Shown here: positions 43,685 through 51,861 of the stretch, in pieces | How the letters are laid out: every line of letters begins with the position of its first letter | How positions within the stretch are numbered: the first letter of the stretch is position 1 | Origin: Escherichia phage AV109 | Sequence record: OR352939.1 | Strand: one strand, 5' to 3' | Length of the DNA stretch: 64,000 nt | Notes under the pieces: generated by a model | Told to the model about the DNA's origin: nothing | Database searches by the model: none | What the model saw: the letters and a program-made list of their open reading frames with translations, nothing else | Translations under genes and position numbers: made by a program

Positions 43685-45949
43685 TTAAAGCTTACAAGCA
43701 GAACAATCTTCAGCTTTAGGTGTTTCTAATTCATAGTCATCTGTACCTGACCCATCACGAGTGTTATGATAGTAGAGGTTTTTTCCGCCAAAGTACCAGA
43801 AGTAAAGCAGATCGTCAAGCATTACTGACATTGGCACTTTACCTTTCTCAAATACTGCAGGGTCATAGTAAGTATTAGCAGAAGCAGATTGGCACACCCA
43901 TTTCAACATGATAGCAACTTGGGTCAAATAAGGTTTATTACCTTTCTTAGCAAGTTTCCACGCGTAGTCGTAAAGACTCATGTTATGTTCTATATTAGGA
44001 ACAACCTGTCGGAAGTTGCCTTCTTTAGATTCTTTAATACTTACAGGTCCACGAGGTGGTTCTATACCATTTGTGCTATTTGAGACTTGACTGCTTGACT
44101 CACAAGGCATGAGTGCAGACAACGTTGAGTTACGAATTCCATGTTCTTTGAGTTCAGCTCGAAGTTCTTCCCAGTCACAGACATAGTTCGGGGCTGCGAT
44201 TTGGTCAATCTTTTTATTGTACCAGTCGATAGGTAATTCGCCTCTAGACCATTTAGTGTCTGAATAATACTCACAAGGTCCTTTTTCTTTGGCGAGTTTG
44301 ATTGATGCTTTGATAAGGCCATATTGCAATCTCTCGAACAATTCATGGGTCAAATCGTTAGCGTCTTCATATGAAGCAAAGTTAGAAGCTAACCATGCAG
44401 CATAGTTCGTCACACCAACACCGAGATTTCGACGCTTTTTAGCTTTTAAAGCTTCTGGAACCGGATAATCTTGATAGTCTAACAGGTTATCAAGTGCACG
44501 TACTTGTACTTCAGCAAGTTCATTAATTTTATCTTGGTCTTGCCAATCAAATTTATCTAATACAAAAGCAGATAATGTGCATAAACCAATTTCAGCATCA
44601 GGACCATTCACATCATTAGTTGGAATAGCGATTTCACAACATAAGTTACTCTGACGAATTGGAGCTTTTTCACGAATAAACGGAGTGTAGTTATTCGTGT
44701 TATCAACAAACTGTGGATAAATTCGAGCAGTGCCAGAACGTTCAGTCATGAACAATTCAAAGAGTTCTAGTGCTTTGATTCTTTTCTTTCTGATTGTTGG
44801 GTCTTTTTCAGCTTTCTCATAAAGCTCACGGAATTTATCTTGATCTTCAAAGAACGAGTAGTATAGTTCACCTGACATTTCGTGAGGGCTAAATAAAGTA
44901 ATATAATCATTTTTACCAAGGCGTTCCATCATAAGGTCATTAATCTGAATTCCGTAGTCCATATGTCGAATACGGTTTTCATCCACGCCTTTGTTATTTT
45001 TCAGAACTAATAGGTTCTCTACTTCTAAGTGCCACATCGGATAATACGCTGTAGCAGCACCACCACGAATACCACCTTGAGAACAAGATTTTACTGCAGT
45101 TTGGAAATGTTTCCAGAATGGAATAACACCCGTATGTCGGACTTCACCCATACCGATCTTAGAACCTTCTGCACGAAGCATACCAACGTTGATACCGATA
45201 CCAGCTCGTTTAGAAATATATTCAATAATTGATGCTGAAGTTTTGTTAATAGATTTTAACGAATCACCGGCTTCAATAACTACACAACTAGAGAACTGGC
45301 GAGTCGGAGTGCGAGCACCTGCCATAATTGGAGTAGGCAATGAAACTTGATGAGTAGAAACGGCATCATAAAAACGAATAATATGTTTCAAACGGTCATG
45401 AGTTTCGTCTTGATGTAAGGCCATACCAATAGCCATGATAGCAAACTGTGGAGTTTCATAAATCTTCCCAGTTGTTTTATCTTTAACCAAGTATTTTTCT
45501 TTAAGCTGCATAGCACCAGCATAAGTCAGGTCAAAGTCTCGTTCATGTTTAATCTGTGAATCGAGATAAATGATTTCTTCTGCTGAATATTTAGACAACA
45601 ACTCAGGGTCATATTTGCCTTCATTAACACAGTAAGAAATATGGTCGATAAAAGCAGGCGGTTCAAACTGCCCATATACATCTTTACGAAGTGCAAACAT
45701 TAGCCCTTTGGCGGCGACATACTGATAATCGGGTTCTTCGACAGAAATCAAGTTAGCTGCAACTTTAATACAAATCTTCTGAATATCTTTGGTGCTCATC
45801 CCATCAACCAGATGAGTCTTAATTTCTTCATACAATTCGTATGGGTCGATTTGTGTTCCTTCACACTGCCAAGTTAATACTTGAATAATTTTCTGTGCAT
45901 CAAAATTTTGGGATACACCTGAATTTTTCACTACTTTAAAATTATACAT
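43685..45949 (-). CDS. nrdA: ribonucleotide reductase large subunit NrdA
   Basis: 754 aa, same length as T4 NrdA; near-identical to recalled T4 sequence over long stretches. Confidence 0.97.
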   Translation of the reverse strand: MYNFKVVKNSGVSQNFDAQKIIQVLTWQCEGTQIDPYELYEEIKTHLVDGMSTKDIQKICIKVAANLISVEEPDYQYVAAKGLMFALRKDVYGQFEPPAFIDHISYCVNEGKYDPELLSKYSAEEIIYLDSQIKHERDFDLTYAGAMQLKEKYLVKDKTTGKIYETPQFAIMAIGMALHQDETHDRLKHIIRFYDAVSTHQVSLPTPIMAGARTPTRQFSSCVVIEAGDSLKSINKTSASIIEYISKRAGIGINVGMLRAEGSKIGMGEVRHTGVIPFWKHFQTAVKSCSQGGIRGGAATAYYPMWHLEVENLLVLKNNKGVDENRIRHMDYGIQINDLMMERLGKNDYITLFSPHEMSGELYYSFFEDQDKFRELYEKAEKDPTIRKKRIKALELFELFMTERSGTARIYPQFVDNTNNYTPFIREKAPIRQSNLCCEIAIPTNDVNGPDAEIGLCTLSAFVLDKFDWQDQDKINELAEVQVRALDNLLDYQDYPVPEALKAKKRRNLGVGVTNYAAWLASNFASYEDANDLTHELFERLQYGLIKASIKLAKEKGPCEYYSDTKWSRGELPIDWYNKKIDQIAAPNYVCDWEELRAELKEHGIRNSTLSALMPCESSSQVSNSTNGIEPPRGPVSIKESKEGNFRQVVPNIEHNMSLYDYAWKLAKKGNKPYLTQVAIMLKWVCQSASANTYYDPAVFEKGKVPMSVMLDDLLYFWYFGGKNLYYHNTRDGSGTDDYELETPKAEDCSACKL

Positions 45950-46577
45950 AATAATTCCATGTTGGATAATTTGATGATTTTAGACGGCGTCTAACCGTTT
46001 GGGTGCTCATAGATAAAATTATTGACGCTTCATTTAATGTATCATATATTACGTCGTTTATAATTACTTTCTTTGCAAATGGATTCTTAGCTCCTATCAT
46101 AGCGTTAGAAATAGCTTGCTTAGTTGATTCTTTTAATGGGACTCCTTTAGAAATTTTTGTTTTAATTTTTATATTGTATTGTCCGCGTTTTTTACCTAAT
46201 AAAGAATTTCGTATCTTTTCTTTAGTCTCTTCAGATTTAACATGTCCTAGTTTGGAACGAGATATTTTATCTTTTGTTTTTTGGTCTAATTTTCGCCCTT
46301 TAAGCAAATCAACCATTTTTGCTCTAGCCCATCCAAATTCTTTATTATTTCTAGAACTCATTAAATTAACCGCGGTTGCTAAACCTAAATTGTTCGGATA
46401 TATTTTTAATAAAAGAAGATGAGCCAAATAATGTTCTGAATATGTTAATTTAACTAGATTGTATGACTCATTGGTGCCACCTAAACATTTTGGGATTATA
46501 TGATGCCATTCACCATCGATATCTTCAAAATTTCTTTCTTTATTTACTAAGTTTTTATATATTTTTAAATAATCCAT
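45942..46577 (-). CDS. free-standing HNH homing endonuclease with NUMOD-like repeats
   Basis: HNH motif EWHHIIPK...NLVKLTYSEHYLAH; repeated ETKEKIR/STKQAIS motifs; track start 46589 is a GTG, ATG at 46577; overlaps nrdA start by 8 nt. Confidence 0.8.
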   Translation of the reverse strand: MDYLKIYKNLVNKERNFEDIDGEWHHIIPKCLGGTNESYNLVKLTYSEHYLAHLLLLKIYPNNLGLATAVNLMSSRNNKEFGWARAKMVDLLKGRKLDQKTKDKISRSKLGHVKSEETKEKIRNSLLGKKRGQYNIKIKTKISKGVPLKESTKQAISNAMIGAKNPFAKKVIINDVIYDTLNEASIILSMSTQTVRRRLKSSNYPTWNYYV

Positions 46578-46653
46578 AGTATAATCCACTTTGTAGTATC
46601 AACGGGATAGTATTTATCCCGTTAATTTTATTATACACTTTTAAACTGAAGCG

Positions 46654-46908
46654 TTAATTATCCTCAGCAATAATTTCTTCGTATTCTTTAGGTGTCAAGA
46701 CCGTGATATTGAAATAAACCAACGGTTCTTTTTCCACACCGTAACCACCACAGAATTCACGATATTCATAAATTCGTTCATGTGAATAACAAATGAATCG
46801 TTCACCTTTAACTATGATTTCACTATTCGGTGAAGGGATATCTAGTTCGGTAGGATTTTTCATTTCAAAAATTGTGGTGCCATATGAATTAATAAAACGT
46901 AAAATCAT
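46654..46908 (-). CDS. hypothetical protein (nrdA.1-like position)
   Basis: 84-aa ORF between td exon 2 and the HNH gene. Confidence 0.5.
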   Translation of the reverse strand: MILRFINSYGTTIFEMKNPTELDIPSPNSEIIVKGERFICYSHERIYEYREFCGGYGVEKEPLVYFNITVLTPKEYEEIIAEDN

Positions 46909-46909
46909 T

Positions 46910-47221
46910 TTATACCGCCATTTTAGCTTTGATAGCTGGATGTGATTCGTAATTTTTAAGAACGAAATCAGAATGTGTCATCGTTCCGGTAACCCAGTCC
47001 ATTTGGATTTTTGTAGGCCAATTCTCAAAATTACTAGGCCAATTAATTTCAAGAGAACATAACTCTTTAGGTTCACGACGAAGAACTTCTTTGCATTGTT
47101 CTACATGATTGCTGTAGATATGCGTGTTGCCGCCTGAGAACACTAAATCACCTGGGATAAGGTTACACATCTTCGCTACAATATGTGTCAAGGCAGCGTA
47201 CGAGGCGATGTTGAACGGTAG
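46910..47221 (-). CDS. td: thymidylate synthase, exon 2
   Basis: LPFNIASYAAL.. continues the ThyA sequence; 3' splice site ..AUAAUG|CUA as in T4 td. Confidence 0.92.
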   Translation of the reverse strand, partial: LPFNIASYAALTHIVAKMCNLIPGDLVFSGGNTHIYSNHVEQCKEVLRREPKELCSLEINWPSNFENWPTKIQMDWVTGTMTHSDFVLKNYESHPAIKAKMAV

Positions 47222-48237
47222 CATTATGTTCAGATAAGGTCGTTAATCTTATCCCGGAATTATATCCAGCTGCATGTCACCATGCAGAGCAGACTATATC
47301 TCCAACTTGTTAAAGCAAGTTGTCTATCGTTTCGAGTCACTTGACCCTACTCCCTAAAGGGATAGTCGTTAGGCATTTATGTAGAACCAATTCCACTTAT
47401 CAGATTTTACACGGTAAGTAACTAATCCTGATGAAATTTCAAAATGTCTAGCCGCATCGGCTGCACATTCAAAAATAATCCCATCGCATGAAATCTTTTT
47501 GATGTTAGCTGGCTTTTTGCCTTTCATCTTTTCAGATAGTTTAGTTTTAGTTTTTTCTGAATGTTTGTGATTAAAGAACGGGTTATTTTCACCTGAACGT
47601 TTTCGGCACTTTCCACAAGTATCGGCCGAAGATGGTATGCGAACACCGCATTTACAAAACTTGTGGTTTTCTGGATTCCATCGGCCATTTTTACTTCCGT
47701 GTTTACCATAAAGAGCTTTCCGACCATCAGGACCAAGCTTAAGCATCTTAGCTTTAACAGTTTCAGCTCGTTTCTTAGCAATTTCTTCTTTTAATGGATG
47801 ATTTGAAAGCACATCGCCAAAAGACGCATCAGCAATATTATATCCATTAATTTTAGAATTTAGCTCTTTAATCCAAAAATTTTCTCGTTCAATAATCAAA
47901 TCTTTCTCATATGGAATTTCTTCCAGTATAGAGCATTCAAAAACATTACCATGTTTATTAAAAGACCTTTGAAATTTTATAGAAGAGTGAACACCGTTTT
48001 CAAGGTCTTTAAAATGTCTCTTCCATCTTTTCTCAAAATCTTTAGCACTTCCAACATACACTTTACCGTTTAAAGTGTTTTTAATCTGATAAATTCCGCT
48101 TTTCATAAACACCTCTTTTTATATAGAAGTATTTATTAAAGGGTAGTCCTACAATTTAGCACGGGATTGTCTACTAGAGAGGTCCCCCGTTTAGATAGAT
48201 TACAAGTATAAGTCACCTTATACCTAGGCCTAAATTA
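47222..48237 (-). mobile_element. group I intron in td (1016 nt) carrying I-TevI
   Basis: 5' end UAAUUUAGGCCUAGGUAUAAGGUGACUUAUACUUGUAAUCUAUCUAAACGGGG matches the recalled T4 td intron; length 1016 as in T4. Confidence 0.92.
47369..48106 (-). CDS. I-TevI: GIY-YIG homing endonuclease I-TevI (intron-encoded)
   Basis: 245 aa from the ATG at 48106 (track starts at an upstream GTG); near-identical to recalled T4 I-TevI. Confidence 0.93.
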   Translation of the reverse strand: MKSGIYQIKNTLNGKVYVGSAKDFEKRWKRHFKDLENGVHSSIKFQRSFNKHGNVFECSILEEIPYEKDLIIERENFWIKELNSKINGYNIADASFGDVLSNHPLKEEIAKKRAETVKAKMLKLGPDGRKALYGKHGSKNGRWNPENHKFCKCGVRIPSSADTCGKCRKRSGENNPFFNHKHSEKTKTKLSEKMKGKKPANIKKISCDGIIFECAADAARHFEISSGLVTYRVKSDKWNWFYINA

Positions 48238-48786
48238 ACCTAAGAAAACATCTACACTGCGTTGATACCATTGTAAATCAAGATGTCCATTACGCACATT
48301 AAATTGATAGAACATATGACAAGGAGGAAGAGCCATTTGATTTATTTCAGCCGGATTCCAGGCAGAAACAATTTGACGACGATCAGTTGGTAATTTTTTA
48401 ATACGGTCGATTGTTTCAACTAATTGGTCTACACCACCAAAATCACGCCATTGCTTACCATAAATAGGACCAAGTTCGCCGCTATGATATCCAAGGTCTT
48501 TTGCCTGATTTTCATAGTTGTCGTCCCAAATAGTTTTACCTTGAATAAGACTACCATGAGTACGAATACGCAAATCATTAACATTTGTAGAGCCAGACAT
48601 GAACCATAATAGCTCAGCAATACAAGCTTTCCATGCAAGCTTCTTGGTTGTTACTGCAGGAAATCCTTTAGTCAGATCCCATCGCAATTTAGTTCCGAAC
48701 AGGGCAATAGTGCCGGTACCTGTACGGTCGTCTGTTTCGTAGCCATTTTCTAGGATATCATTAATCAGGTATTGGTATTGTTTCAT
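48238..48786 (-). CDS. td: thymidylate synthase, exon 1
   Basis: 183 codons ending ..QRSVDVFLG immediately before the intron UAA. Confidence 0.93.
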
Positions 48787-49370
48787 TTATATACGCTCTC
48801 AGTAATTTCGGTGAGTTCATCGATTCTGTAGTAATGAGATTCTACCATAGAACGTTGAAGCATAATATCTTGAATGAAATCTTTATCAAGTTGAACGTCT
48901 GAATTAACACGACATTTCTTAATGATTTTAGTCATCACGATTTCATCAGCATAAGGCAATGCTTGTTTCAATAAAGCAGGGCCACCAATAACAGATACAT
49001 CAACATGTTCAGTAGAAAGTTTAAATGGTACGTCAGTTGCAGTGCTAAACAGGTTAATTTCACCACCCATTACCAAGGTAATAAATTCAGATTGGGTGAT
49101 ATAGAAACGCGCAAGTTCGTTGGTTTTGGTCCTAGGCAGTTCTCTGGCCATATCAGTGACAACCACATGAGTACGATCCTGGAGTAGACGAGGTAATGAT
49201 GCAAAAGTCTTAGCACCCATAACCATTACAGTGTTTTTAGTGCGAGCAACAAAGTTACTCATATCTTGTTTGATATGCTTCCATGGAAGTCCATCACCTA
49301 ATCCAAAAGCATATTCCAGTTTATCATCAACTGTTTTAGTCGGAGCGCATGCGAATACTAATTTAAGCAT
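48783..49370 (-). CDS. frd: dihydrofolate reductase
   Basis: 195 aa; matches recalled T4 Frd (GLGDGLPW, VSVIGGPALL, LPYADE); ATGA overlap with td. Confidence 0.93.
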   Translation of the reverse strand: MLKLVFACAPTKTVDDKLEYAFGLGDGLPWKHIKQDMSNFVARTKNTVMVMGAKTFASLPRLLQDRTHVVVTDMARELPRTKTNELARFYITQSEFITLVMGGEINLFSTATDVPFKLSTEHVDVSVIGGPALLKQALPYADEIVMTKIIKKCRVNSDVQLDKDFIQDIMLQRSMVESHYYRIDELTEITESVYK

Positions 49371-49373
49371 TTT

Positions 49374-49622
49374 TTATTTCCTCAGATTTTTCTTAACAAC
49401 TTTCCAATCAGCTTTAAACGATTCAACATCAGAGTGGTGAATCCAGAATCCTGCACTTTCACCATCTTCGTAGAGTGGACATCCATCGCATTCTTCGTTC
49501 CAACCCATTTCACGTAAAGCTTCTTCAGCTTGTTCAAGGAGTTCAGCGTCTTTACCAACGATGTTGAAGTACCATTTACCTCTAACTTCAGAATCTTTGA
49601 TGCTCTGGCGTTGCAATCTCAT
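49374..49622 (-). CDS. hypothetical protein (frd.1-like position), 82 aa from ATG
   Basis: track ORF starts at a GTG at 49685; the ATG at 49622 is preceded by GAAGGAG. Confidence 0.5.
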   Translation of the reverse strand: MRLQRQSIKDSEVRGKWYFNIVGKDAELLEQAEEALREMGWNEECDGCPLYEDGESAGFWIHHSDVESFKADWKVVKKNLRK

Positions 49623-49684
49623 TTTATTCTCCTTCACTTTTGATTTGATAGGGCTACTATAACATAACCCTATCTGATTATACA

Positions 49685-50077
49685 CTACTTTTTAAAAGTT
49701 TTTTGCAAAAGTTTGATGATTTCGTCGACGTTGGTTTCATCTACGATACAATGGATTTTTGTTACACCTAAAGTTATACCTTCGTTAGTAGGTTGAGGCT
49801 TTACTAAATCTACTTCAATAAAGTATTTGAACTCGTCAGGATAAATCTCGAAATAAGTTTCAATTTCACCACCGGCAGAACATACAGTACCGTCTTCCAT
49901 AGTTACACTTACTACGTTTGACGTATCGCTATCATAATCAGGTTCCATTCCGTTTACAACAAAACTAGGCCCATGGAGTTCAATCAATTTTAACATCTTA
50001 GCGTTATTGTGTGGTGCTTCTTGAACAAAGTCGTCTTTAAATAAAGGGTTAATGATATAAGATTTTCCGATTTCCAT
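49685..50077 (-). CDS. hypothetical protein (frd.2-like position)
   Basis: 130-aa ORF behind an early promoter and conserved leader. Confidence 0.55.
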   Translation of the reverse strand: MEIGKSYIINPLFKDDFVQEAPHNNAKMLKLIELHGPSFVVNGMEPDYDSDTSNVVSVTMEDGTVCSAGGEIETYFEIYPDEFKYFIEVDLVKPQPTNEGITLGVTKIHCIVDETNVDEIIKLLQKTFKK

Positions 50078-50190: not shown

Positions 50191-51090
50191 TTATAGACCA
50201 GCTAACAGGTCATCGAGGTCGCCATCGTCAGAAGACGAGGAACTCATGAAGTCATCTTCAGTTTTTGCAGAACTAAAGGCTTCCATGTCTTTATCAAAAT
50301 CGTCAAGGTCAGAAGCAACTTTATCTGCAACAGAAGCTGCTGCGGCTGCTGCACCACCAAGAGCGGCAGTACCAAGAACTTGATTAAATTTAGTATTCAA
50401 TTCTTCAAACGATTTGAACTTATCTTTAGAAGTCATTTCAGAAAGGTCGACCATTTGTTCGAACAATTCTTTCTGGAAAGATTCATCATCAATGTTTGGA
50501 ATCGCAGATTGATTCAGGAATTTAGATTCGTCGTAGTTACTGAAACCAGAAACCTGTTTAACTTTCAGCACGAAGTTAGCACCTTCCCATGGGCAAGTTA
50601 CATCAACAGGAGTTTCACCCATTTCAGTATCGACTGCAATCATTGCATTGATTTTGTCCCAAATCTTTTTACCGAAACGATATTTGAATACTTTACCTTC
50701 ATTATCTGGAGCTTGAGGGTCTTTAACAACCAGAATATTAGCCCAATAAGAAGTTTTACGTTTCAGTTGAGAATATTCAGTTTTGTTGGTATTGTACAGG
50801 TCATTTTTACTAATGTACTGACATACAGGACAAGAGTCATAATCACCGTGTGTAGATGAACAGGTTTCAATATACCATTTGCCATTTTTCTTGAACCCGT
50901 GGTTAACAAGAATTGCAAACGGAAGTGCGTCATCTGTTTTTGCCGGCAGGAAACGAATTACCGCTTGGCCATTACCGGATGCGTCGAGTTTCAGCTTCCA
51001 TTCACCTTTATCTTCTGAAGAGAAACCTTTGTTACCATTCAGTTTAGCCATCTGAGCTGCGAGGTCTGCGGTACTTTTACGTTTAAACAT
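50191..51090 (-). CDS. 32: single-stranded DNA-binding protein (T4 gp32-like)
   Basis: 299 aa; near-identical to recalled T4 gp32, including the acidic Ser/Asp-rich C-terminus. Confidence 0.97.
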
Positions 51091-51160
51091 TTTATTTGCC
51101 TTTATTTAGATTATTAATTAAATTTTACAGTTGGTTGCTACGACACTTATACCTCGTAGC
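51091..51160 (-). promoter_or_regulatory. gene 32 5' leader: AU-rich UUAAA-repeat region plus upstream hairpin (autogenous translational operator)
   Basis: minus-strand leader AAUUUAAUUAAUAAUCUAAAUAAA before the ATG and a 7-bp hairpin GCUACGA..UCGUAGC further upstream. Confidence 0.5.
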
Positions 51161-51170
51161 TGGTATGATT

Positions 51171-51178
51171 TATTTATA
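51171..51178 (-). promoter_or_regulatory. candidate T4-type late promoter (TATAAATA on minus strand) for gene 32
   Basis: plus-strand TATTTATA about 80 nt upstream of the gene 32 ATG. Confidence 0.45.
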
Positions 51179-51207
51179 AAGTAATTTTAACACACAAGAA
51201 ATAAAGC

Positions 51208-51861
51208 TTAATACTTACATGATTTGATTGTTTCTATGAACAATTTCTTAGCAGCATTTCTATCGATTTGAAGTATTTTTCGATATGCCTTTAATTTGGT
51301 AGAATAATTTTGCCAGACTAAGTTATCGGTGAGTTCGTCGTGCTTATCTATAATATTCAAAAATGAGTCCAACAATAAGAAAGTCTCAAATGAAATTATA
51401 TTGCTTTGTAGCAATTTGAATATGTAGCTCGACTGAACGTTGCTATTATAATCAAATATCTCTTGAAGCGCACTAACTTCAACTTTCTTACTGAAATAGT
51501 AGATGTTACGTACGTCTTCAGCAAACGACTCTTTAGCTTGTTTGAGACGTCCAATATATTCCCTATAGAAAACTAATGCATCAGCGTCTGATATCTCACC
51601 AATCCATGCGTCTTGGTTAGCAACTAAGTTGCTTATGAATATCAAGGTGAGTTCCTTCAATTTATATTTCTCTGCTAGTTTTTCAAAGAAATATTTATCT
51701 CGGCGTTTTTGATACGCATTATCCGAAACACGCATGCACCAGTTATATTTGATTACGTCATACCGACCACCAAAGTGGTTTTTGCACATCAAGTATAGTT
51801 TATATACTGATTTTCCATTAATATAACGTTCTCCGTCAGGAGGCATGCGTATTTTAATCAT
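51208..51861 (-). CDS. 59: helicase loader (T4 gp59-like)
   Basis: 217 aa; near-identical to recalled T4 gp59. Confidence 0.95.
   Translation of the reverse strand: MIKIRMPPDGERYINGKSVYKLYLMCKNHFGGRYDVIKYNWCMRVSDNAYQKRRDKYFFEKLAEKYKLKELTLIFISNLVANQDAWIGEISDADALVFYREYIGRLKQAKESFAEDVRNIYYFSKKVEVSALQEIFDYNSNVQSSYIFKLLQSNIISFETFLLLDSFLNIIDKHDELTDNLVWQNYSTKLKAYRKILQIDRNAAKKLFIETIKSCKY

Follow-up and report, generated by a model that had tools for sequence, protein, structure and literature searches.

The stretch of Escherichia phage AV109 analysed here, referred to below as the window, comprises 64,000 nucleotides (OR352939.1) and carries on its minus strand a thymidylate synthase gene (td) that is interrupted by an intron with an open reading frame (ORF) of its own. 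The intron and its endonuclease, an ortholog of I-TevI, are an ordinary and already well known element, organized as follows.

48786..46910, minus strand: whole td gene, interrupted by the intron (exon 1, intron, exon 2)
48786..48238, minus strand: td exon 1, 549 nt, 183 codons, MKQYQYL...DVFLG
48237..47222, minus strand: td group I intron (T4 td-type), 1016 nt, UAAUUUAGGCC...ACAUAAUG
48146..48237, minus strand: 5' catalytic core of the intron, nt 1-92, from the guide sequence through the P6a 5' strand
48107..48152, minus strand: I-TevI expression control region, intron nt 86-131
48106..47369, minus strand: I-TevI ortholog ORF, 245 aa plus stop codon, intron nt 132-869
47222..47368, minus strand: 3' catalytic core of the intron, from the P7 5' strand to the terminal G
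47221..46910, minus strand: td exon 2, 312 nt including the stop codon, LPFNIASYAAL...KMAV

The td start codon overlaps the stop codon of frd (ATGA), and the same arrangement is found in T4. Exon 1 ends with GTTTTCTTAGGT (..VFLG), directly followed by TAATTTAGGCC, and the first intron bases, UAA, are a stop codon in the exon 1 frame. At its other end, the intron closes with ...GAACATAATG, the last base being the terminal G of ..AUAAUG, and exon 2 begins with CTACCGTTCAAC (LPFN...). The initial annotation had placed the exon ends at ..DVFLG and at LPFN... after ..AUAAUG, with a 1016-nt intron, an embedded 245-aa ORF and a spliced Td of 286 aa, and the coordinates and sequence of the minus strand confirmed each of these. 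The ligated exon junction is predicted to read GUUUUCUUAGGU joined to CUACCGUUC, and the joined exons encode 286 aa plus a stop codon, matching the Pfam family Thymidylat_synt over residues 2-286 (model positions 1-266 of 266, E = 2.7e-97).

The window is a near-complete sequence match to Escherichia phage AV114 (Mosigvirus, RB69-like, OR352944.1), from which it differs at the byte level by one extra T at 46626-46629, outside td. Record OR352944.1 lists two "thymidylate synthase" CDSs and a "homing endonuclease" with no intron feature, and the second thymidylate synthase CDS begins 3 nt early, at the intron-final AUG (47224). Taken at face value, this layout would mean that td is genuinely split or disrupted by a free-standing homing endonuclease gene, leaving two fragments or a pseudogene without any splicing, and the in-frame ATG 3 nt upstream of exon 2 can be read in the same way. 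However, this ATG belongs to the ..AUAAUG at the 3' end of the intron, which is conserved in all copies, and joining the exons at the two junctions restores an uninterrupted full-length Td. Properly annotated, the locus has one joined td CDS, a group I intron feature and I-TevI, in place of the two td CDSs and the "homing endonuclease" given for AV114 and in many sister records.

On either side of the I-TevI ORF lies non-coding sequence, 278 nt in all, that forms a complete group I core. Its 5' part (nt 1-92) contains the guide sequence GCCUAGG (nt 9-15), P2 with a GUGA loop, the P3 5' strand, P4, P5, P6 and the P6a 5' strand, and the last ~20 nt of the ORF double as the 3' strands of P6a and P6. 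The 3' part holds the P7 5' strand (GACUA), P7.1, P7.2, the P3 3' strand (GAUAGA), P8, J8/7 with the P7 3' strand (GAGAUAUAGUC), P9 with a GUGA loop, P9.1, P9.2 and the terminal G. The last 7 nt of exon 1, CUUAGGU, are the 5' strand of P1 and pair with the guide sequence at 7/7 positions, with a U-1.G9 wobble at the splice site. The helix structure was drawn by hand from the td intron sequence family, and in the AV109 intron all 77 of its 77 pairs, in 14 helices (P1-P9.2, including the P3/P7 pseudoknot), are standard. Across 10 td introns 99.0% of the cells pair, compared to 30-43% when the partners are slid by 1-3 columns, a control that favours a structure drawn from the same sequence family. 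P1 is paired in 10/10 introns with three of its pair positions variable, six pairs in P7.2, P8 and P9.2 show compensatory double changes, and 0 of 500 shuffles reached the observed value on any of five measures. The group I model is fully formed in the window and supported by covariation. Most helices (P2-P7.1) are invariant among the 10 introns and are therefore uninformative either way on pairing. The MAFFT alignment was kept without hand edits and mis-registers P9.1 of Pseudomonas phage PspYZU05, so that P9.1 is scored as broken in this phage alone; by eye, GUUC/GAAC is found one column over, in a shifted register. A candidate P10 covariation between intron nt 6 and exon 2 position +3 was rejected due to its inconsistent pattern across phages, and for the apparent association of intron nt 6 with exon position -4, linkage within 10 nt is the simpler explanation.

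Rfam gave zero matches at the gathering threshold over the whole window, a point in favour of a td gene split without splicing. At a relaxed threshold, RF00028 matched the 3' core of the AV109 intron with 36.2 bits against a cutoff of 50 (E = 4.6e-7), and its 5' half was misaligned into the 738-nt ORF, the presence of which explains the score below the cutoff. The ORF-less td introns of Escherichia phages HP3 (70.3 bits) and BYEP01 (64.1 bits) exceed the same cutoff, and the lower score of the AV109 intron is therefore not counted against a group I identity; with that score, its membership rests on homology to T4, on the ORF-less copies and on the hand-drawn structure. The J8/7-P7 motif (GAUAUAGUC, the G-binding site) aligns to the Rfam consensus, and by homology the intron would belong to subgroup IA2. 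Other sub-threshold Rfam matches (rli49, rli34, snoRNAs and 2dG-II) lie in coding sequence with E-values of 0.04-10 and were dismissed as chance. Since the non-coding flanks of the ORF fold into the full core with covariation and share 93-99% of their positions with the self-splicing T4 intron, as compared to 68-80% for the exons, we regard a td gene that is truly in pieces as extremely improbable.

The td intron of T4 (M12742; NC_000866.4) interrupts the same gene at the same site, between ..DVFLG and LPFN.., and shares the P1-P9.2 helix set, an ORF looped out from P6a whose 3' end forms P6a/P6, a 245-aa endonuclease of four modules, the hairpin over the ribosome-binding site, the late-promoter motif and the operator-like site. 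The whole intron is 90% identical to that of T4 and the ORF 87.9%, and the non-coding core reaches 93% in its 5' part and 98.6% in its 3' part, whereas the td exons are 80% and 68% identical (74% overall), the host gene being of the Mosigvirus type. Such a core suggests guanosine-dependent autocatalytic splicing as in T4. The initial annotation had stated a T4 match for both junctions and for the length, which held in part. The 1016 nt agree with M12742 but not with the RefSeq entry NC_000866.4, where the intron has 1017 nt, and the 3' junction is identical to T4, while the 5' junction differs at exon position -4 (A, in T4 G) and at intron positions 6, 13 and 14. In the 5' core the differences are limited to nt 6 (U, in T4 G), nt 13 and 14, which make the guide sequence GCCUAGG instead of GCCUGAG, and nt 54 (G, in T4 A). 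P1 pairing is preserved through all four differences at the 5' junction and guide sequence, and P1 is fully paired with the AV109 exon. In the 3' core, G>A at nt 986 turns a G.U pair of P9.2 into A-U, and a change at nt 883 falls in the P7.1 loop; two loop bases differ in the regulatory hairpin, and the operator-like site is without one T that is found in the T4 RefSeq sequence. The td gene is dispensable for T4 on thy+ hosts, and selection for splicing is thus not absolute.

The protein encoded within the intron has the architecture of I-TevI, with a GIY-YIG nuclease domain (residues 1-92), a linker, a Cys4 zinc finger and, towards the C-terminus, NUMOD3 as a minor-groove helix and the helix-turn-helix DNA-binding domain of I-TevI. 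Each of the four Pfam domains of I-TevI (GIY-YIG, I-TevI_ZnF, NUMOD3 and I-TevI_DNA-bd) was found, PF01541 (GIY-YIG) with 61.8 bits against a cutoff of 22.6, and PF22635, PF07460 and PF20987 with 63.4, 24.7 and 108.1 bits, each above its cutoff. Alignment to I-TevI structures in the PDB covers the whole ORF (E = 1e-57 to 1e-66); the catalytic domain is matched by 1mk0 and 1ln0 (E = 2e-57) and residues 130-245 by the DNA-binding entry 1i3j (E = 5e-66). The E75A and R27A mutations of the 1mk0/1ln0 entries are wild type in AV109, where Y6, Y17, R27, H31, H40, E75 and N90 are conserved together with the zinc-ligand cysteines C151, C153, C164 and C167. Homology to I-TevI is thereby established, whereas the near-identity that had been claimed is not, as 218/245 residues (89.0%) are identical to T4 I-TevI. 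Of the 27 substitutions, 4 are in the catalytic domain and 23 in the linker, zinc finger or DNA-binding domain, and given this clustering, any activity and specificity of the protein towards sites of the RB69 type, which have C at -1 and G at +3, are putative.

The concentration of substitutions in the parts outside the catalytic domain could be taken to mean that the intron splices while its endonuclease has decayed or become mismatched to local targets, leaving a domesticated, immobile element that is inherited only vertically. The intronless Mosigvirus sites do depart from the T4 sequence at -1, at +3 and at several places in exon 2, and the ORF-less introns of HP3 and BYEP01 show that endonuclease loss occurs. 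In contrast, the ORF is full length, the catalytic and zinc residues are intact in 10/10 ORF-bearing copies, and dN/dS is 0.12 compared to T4, 0.17 compared to PspYZU05 and 0.09-0.17 across all comparisons, values that show purifying selection at the sequence level.

The elements that control I-TevI expression in T4 also have counterparts in AV109. An operator-like copy of the homing site, GTAGGACTACCCTTTAATAA, occupies intron nt 86-105 and is identical to the exon junction of AV109 itself at 14/20 positions and to the T4 homing site at 15/20, with no CNNNG at cleavage distance from it. It is overlapped by the late-promoter-like motif AATAAATA at intron nt 101-108, a motif that the annotation of phage Lutter lists as a promoter. 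A 12-bp hairpin formed by AUAAAUACUUCU with AGAGGUGUUUAU covers the Shine-Dalgarno sequence and the start codon, its 3' arm reaching the AU(G) of the ORF (nt 132-133, window 48105-48106), and has a predicted energy of -15.6 kcal/mol (z = -4.3), the T4 counterpart having -15.3. An earlier proposal, CCCUUUAAUA with UAUUUAAAGAGG, was dropped since the fold gave this better stem. Hairpin, late promoter and operator together constitute the known mechanism of I-TevI regulation (PMC2988022). A sigma-70 promoter and terminator scan of positions 46500-49500 gave counts equal to the shuffled expectation, T4 late and middle promoters being outside the scan model.

For cleavage of intronless alleles, I-TevI needs a CNNNG 23-25 nt upstream of the insertion site, and it tolerates homing-site substitutions (PMC2988022). 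In exon 1, the cleavage motif CAACG occupies -27..-23 relative to the insertion site (window 48260-48264), as it does in the intronless alleles of RB69, EQ1 and AV112 and in 12/12 td genes examined. An intronless, contiguous td junction is present in 172 phage records, RB69 and AV112 among them. Over the stretch from 48 nt before to 14 nt after the insertion site, AV114 and EQ1, its closest intronless relative, differ at just three positions, -4, -1 and +3, position -1 being U in AV114 and C in the intronless RB69 and EQ1. RB69 and AV112 show the same small cluster near the insertion site, AV112 being changed at +1 instead of -1, and all of these changes are synonymous. The Mosigvirus phage G2285 carries a T4-type co-conversion tract extending from -49 to +36, and we consider such tracts marks of independent homing into Mosigvirus td genes.

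The divergence of the intron does not match that of its host gene. Between AV114 and T4, dS is 1.70 for the td exons and 0.51 for I-TevI, and between AV114 and Klebsiella phage HMGUkp2 it is 2.58 and 0.31, respectively. Judged from these values, the intron is much younger than the td gene that hosts it and than the split between carrier td genes, which, together with the G2285 tract, points to transfer between lineages after their divergence. Since the required CAACG is at the right distance, the enzyme is tolerant of substitutions and the intron has diverged far less than its host gene, we find an intron confined to vertical inheritance very unlikely. The initial annotation had called the element probably still mobile, and the low dN/dS, the retained catalytic and zinc residues, the conserved regulatory elements, the empty homing sites in close relatives and the younger age of the intron all support this, albeit indirectly. 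The comparisons also illustrate two textbook principles, an RNA core that is more conserved than the exons and a guide sequence that remains paired with its exon.

With high confidence, we therefore interpret the locus as a T4-type td group I intron with I-TevI at the canonical td site of a Mosigvirus phage, a reading on which several lines converge, namely the gene anatomy, pairing and covariation in the RNA, domains and key residues of the protein, purifying selection, target sites still empty in other phages, and a divergence of the intron that does not match that of its host gene. Based on the T4 model system, splicing, endonuclease activity, regulation and homing would proceed as follows. 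Transcription of td would run through the intron, whose RNA would fold into the P1-P9.2 core, with pairing of exon 1 CUUAGGU and guide GCCUAGG marking the 5' splice site by a U.G wobble. An exogenous guanosine would attack after U-1, the freed exon 1 would then attack after the terminal G, and ligation of ..DVFLG to LPFN.. would give the mRNA for the 286-aa Td. Early in infection, I-TevI would be silent with its ribosome-binding site locked in the 12-bp hairpin, while late transcripts starting inside the hairpin at the AATAAATA motif would be translatable; probably, I-TevI also represses this promoter through the operator-like homing-site copy. If a cell were co-infected by an intronless relative, I-TevI would bind the exon 1/exon 2 junction and cut 23/25 nt upstream at CAACG, and double-strand-break repair from the intron-bearing genome would copy the intron and a short flanking exon tract into the recipient.

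It may also be speculated that the AV114-type element is a distinct co-adapted lineage of intron and I-TevI, in which the endonuclease preference has shifted to Mosigvirus td junctions (..TTGGGC/CTGCCGTTCAAC.., with the slash at the insertion site), although we find this unlikely. The marks of such a putative lineage would be the guide sequence GCCUAGG, the A at exon position -4 and the 23 linker, zinc finger and DNA-binding substitutions. If true, homing would also need obligatory co-conversion of -1 from C to T, restoring the U.G wobble for splicing, and the element would be a natural case in which a homing endonuclease follows the drift of its target from one phage genus to another. For the canonical td intron and I-TevI that we favour, the significance beyond proper annotation is small, with no sign of new chemistry or of a new kind of element; as a natural variant with 27 substitutions, the AV114-type I-TevI could interest engineers of I-TevI nucleases and linkers.

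A td intron of this type occurs in ~200 phage records, and ~70 phage records hold the AV114-type intron at 95-99.5% identity, with only trivial differences among phages such as AV115, AV116, AV118, Shigella phage TB004, vB_EcoM_G2469 and 348Ecol098PP, as well as Salmonella phage Lv5cm and Mosigvirus LF82-4. Some records already label the intron association (ITEVIR/td1/td2; "group I intron endonuclease"). An exact 33-nt intron motif was found at just three loci in a scan of viral contigs, two of the three being incomplete. Among the copies read, Lv5cm shares both the guide sequence GCCUAGG and the exon flank TTAGGT, while LF82-4 and HMGUkp2 have GCCUGGG in place of GCCUAGG. Since Lv5cm carries this intron type inside a Tequatrovirus td gene (exon dS 0.72 compared to AV114), the intron lineage crosses genera.

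The ORF-less introns of HP3 (320 nt) and BYEP01 (263 nt) occupy the same site and have the same catalytic core, and HP3 shares the guide sequence GCCUAGG with AV109. HP3 retains the last ~70 nt of the I-TevI ORF and in BYEP01 P6a is closed by a short loop, and with the ORF deleted neither intron can drive its own mobility. G54 in J4/5, where T4 has A54, is common to HP3, BYEP01 and the AV109 intron and was counted as a caveat. The copy in PspYZU05, a phage outside the T-even cluster, lies in the same gene with the same 5' junction TTAGGT/TAAT, the same guide sequence and a 245-aa endonuclease with all its key residues kept, the intron being 72.5% and the protein 67% identical to AV109. Its P7.2, P8, P9.1 and P9.2 differ in sequence, and P7.2, P8 and P9.2 still pair in the alignment, making this phage the source of most of the covariation observed.

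The td region of the window encodes a thymidylate synthase in two exons on the minus strand, separated by an intervening sequence that carries an open reading frame, and all coordinates and quoted sequences of the initial annotation proved correct upon sequence reading and translation.

48786..48238, minus strand: td exon 1, 549 nt, 183 codons, 3' end GTT TTC TTA GGT (..VFLG); sequence and translation
48237..47222, minus strand: td intervening sequence, 1016 nt, 5' TAATTTAGGCC, 3' ..GAACATAATG; sequence reading
48106..47369, minus strand: intron ORF, 245 codons, intron nt 132-869; translation
47221..46910, minus strand: td exon 2, 5' CTA CCG TTC AAC (LPFN..); sequence and translation

The opening triplet of the intron (TAATTTAGGCC) is a stop codon in frame with exon 1. 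Joining the exons gives the 286-aa protein previously proposed, residues 2-286 of which match the Pfam thymidylate synthase model end to end (1-266 of 266, E = 2.7e-97). The 1877-nt region is 100% identical, at equal coordinates, to that of Escherichia phage AV114 (OR352944.1, genus Mosigvirus). By its sequence, the element is the classic group I intron of T4 td, complete with the homing endonuclease I-TevI, residing in a Mosigvirus background.

Searching Rfam with the whole window returned no match at the gathering threshold. At a relaxed threshold, the group I intron model RF00028 matched 47270-47500 (36.2 bits, cutoff 50, E = 4.6e-7). The J6/7-P7, P8, J8/7-P7 and P9 regions were correctly aligned in this match, but the genuine 5' core is located 750 nt further upstream, so that the model's 5' half was pushed onto the final stretch of the ORF. 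Td introns that naturally lack the ORF turned up in a distant search, with 320 nt in phage HP3 and 263 nt in phage BYEP01. They score 70.3 and 64.1 bits, respectively, over the full model (cutoff 50), so it is the ORF insertion that lowers the score of the window. Of the I-TevI ORF, the HP3 intron (positions 701-1020 of L007) retains the final ~70 nt, and in BYEP01 (positions 701-963 of L008) P6a is closed by a short loop. We also wrote the structure explicitly (P1, P2, P3, P4, P5, P6, P6a, P7, P7.1, P7.2, P8, P9, P9.1 and P9.2, with P7 pseudoknotted with P3) and checked it against ten aligned td-intron cores with NNNN in place of the ORF. All 77 pairs are standard in the window, and together with the RF00028 scores of the ORF-less relatives this supports the group I intron reading. 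Pairing held in 99.0% of the cells across the ten introns, compared to 30-43% when the 3' partners were slid by 1-3 columns, and 0 of 500 shuffles matched any observed pairing measure, for a structure that was drawn from the td intron family itself and in which the majority of core helices are invariant. Two-sided changes occurred in six pairs of P7.2, P8 and P9.2, with a single divergent intron, that of Pseudomonas phage PspYZU05, contributing most of the covariation.

The region was aligned with the td genes of T4 (NC_000866.4) and phage U5 (AY262155), and the close match of the non-coding intron parts to T4 supported the relationship initially proposed.

Nucleotide identity of the td region to T4
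Exon 1: 79.8%
Intron 5' non-coding part: 93.2%
I-TevI ORF: 87.9%
Intron 3' non-coding part: 98.6%
Exon 2: 68.3%

The length of 1016 nt, earlier said to match T4, is indeed that of the original T4 td entry (M12742) as well as U5, but the intron measures 1017 nt in the T4 RefSeq. Every core difference from T4 appears benign: P1 retains 7/7 pairs and its U.G wobble despite the changes at guide-sequence nt 13/14 (GA>AG) and exon position -4 (G>A; counted from the insertion site), a G.U pair of P9.2 has become A-U through nt 986, nt 883 falls within the loop of P7.1 and nt 118/119 within that of a hairpin, and the G at nt 54 of J4/5 (A>G) also occurs in the ORF-less HP3 and BYEP01 introns. The intron is very probably splicing-competent.

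The assignment of the ORF to I-TevI was right, as it matched solved I-TevI structures of the catalytic domain (1mk0, 1ln0) and the DNA-binding domain (1i3j) with E = 1e-57 to 1e-66, and all four Pfam modules (GIY-YIG, I-TevI zinc finger, NUMOD3 and I-TevI DNA-binding domain) were above cutoff. "Near-identical" was nevertheless an overstatement, since 218 of 245 residues (89.0%) are shared with T4 I-TevI, the 27 substitutions being divided between the catalytic domain (4) and the linker, zinc finger and DNA-binding domain (23). Residues Y6, Y17, R27, H31, H40, E75 and N90 and the four zinc cysteines are kept in 10/10 ORF-bearing copies examined. Moreover, dN/dS of the ORF was 0.12 against T4, 0.09 against LF82-4 and 0.17 against PspYZU05, which points to selection still acting to keep the protein functional.

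Upstream of the ORF, the window has the same regulatory layout as T4 (PMC2988022). A 12-bp hairpin pairing AUAAAUACUUCU with AGAGGUGUUUAU (-15.6 kcal/mol, z = -4.3; -15.3 in T4) would sequester the Shine-Dalgarno sequence and start codon, and its 5' arm contains the late-promoter-like motif AATAAATA, which carries a promoter annotation in phage Lutter. Intron nt 86-105 hold an operator-like homing-site copy that agrees with the phage's own exon junction at 14/20 and with the T4 site at 15/20 positions, and no CNNNG was present at cleavage distance from it. As in T4, P6a and P6 take their 3' strands from the final ~20 nt of the ORF.

Full-length td introns occur in ~200 phage records, ~70 of them AV114-type at at least 95% identity, and contiguous intronless td was found in 172 phage records with a 300-nt spliced-junction query, including RB69, JS09, ST0 and AV111-113; CAACG is kept at -27..-23 in the intronless homing sites. 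The AV114 exons are Mosigvirus-type throughout (96.9% identity to EQ1, 95.2% to RB69, 74.4% to T4). Over the 48 nt before and the 14 nt after the insertion site, only positions -4, -1 and +3 distinguish AV114 from EQ1; near the site the same positions are changed relative to RB69, and -4, +1 and +3 relative to AV112, all synonymously. The U required by P1 comes from the change at -1, where EQ1 and RB69 have C and AV114 has T. Synonymous divergence between AV114 and T4 was 1.70 in the exons and 0.51 in the ORF, and between AV114 and HMGUkp2 2.58 and 0.31, indicating that the intron is much younger than the host-gene split. This agrees with the "recent transfer of old introns" reportedly envisaged by Sandegren and Sjoberg in 2004. 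The intron is probably still mobile.

In the Mosigvirus td gene of vB_EcoM_G2285 (L013), a T4-type intron is flanked by a T4-matching exon tract from -49 to +36, the interval in which its differences from AV114 are concentrated; this is a classic co-conversion tract marking an independent homing event. The td gene of PspYZU05 (genus Jiangsuvirus, KY971610.1; L009 701-1717) is interrupted at the equivalent position by an intron that encodes a 245-aa I-TevI homolog, which shares 67% amino acid identity and retains every key residue. A 2010 review found no convincing evidence of these introns spreading beyond the T-even cluster (PMC2993671).

The OR352944.1 annotation lists two "thymidylate synthase" CDSs and one "homing endonuclease" with no intron feature at td, and introns go unmentioned in the AV114 description (PMC10844046); some near-identical records label the ORF as an intron-associated or group I intron endonuclease. 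The second "thymidylate synthase" CDS (46910..47224) starts at 47224 with an AUG that is the intron's final triplet; such a start is an ORF-caller artefact, and it recurs in many T4-like phage records. Since td introns with I-TevI are an established kind of element and the exact sequence is already public, annotation correction is the sole practical outcome.

Further elements were observed nearby.

45942-46577, minus strand: free-standing 211-aa homing endonuclease gene, between the nrdA.2 homolog and nrdA
46601-46629, reading on the plus strand, opposite to the surrounding genes: 10-bp terminator-like hairpin followed by a T-run
46654-46908: nrdA.2 homolog (DUF5496)

The intergenic T-run (46626-46629) is one T longer than in OR352944.1, so the two sequences are not byte-identical. 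The 211-aa protein matches an HNH phrog as well as phrog_655 "homing endonuclease" (E = 2e-45). NUMOD3 is present at its C-terminus, as is an I-TevI-like DNA-binding domain that scores just below the Pfam cutoff (25 bits, cutoff 27). Its gene is absent at the corresponding position in RB69 and AV112, which marks it as an apparent second mobile element ~330 nt downstream of td. Gene 32 directly adjoins the helicase-loader gene 59 in AV114 (window 50191-51861), whereas in T4 the two are separated by segG, a GIY-YIG endonuclease gene. Between frd and gene 32, AV114 carries a 103-aa ORF (49374-49685) where RB69 has the 82-aa frd.1.
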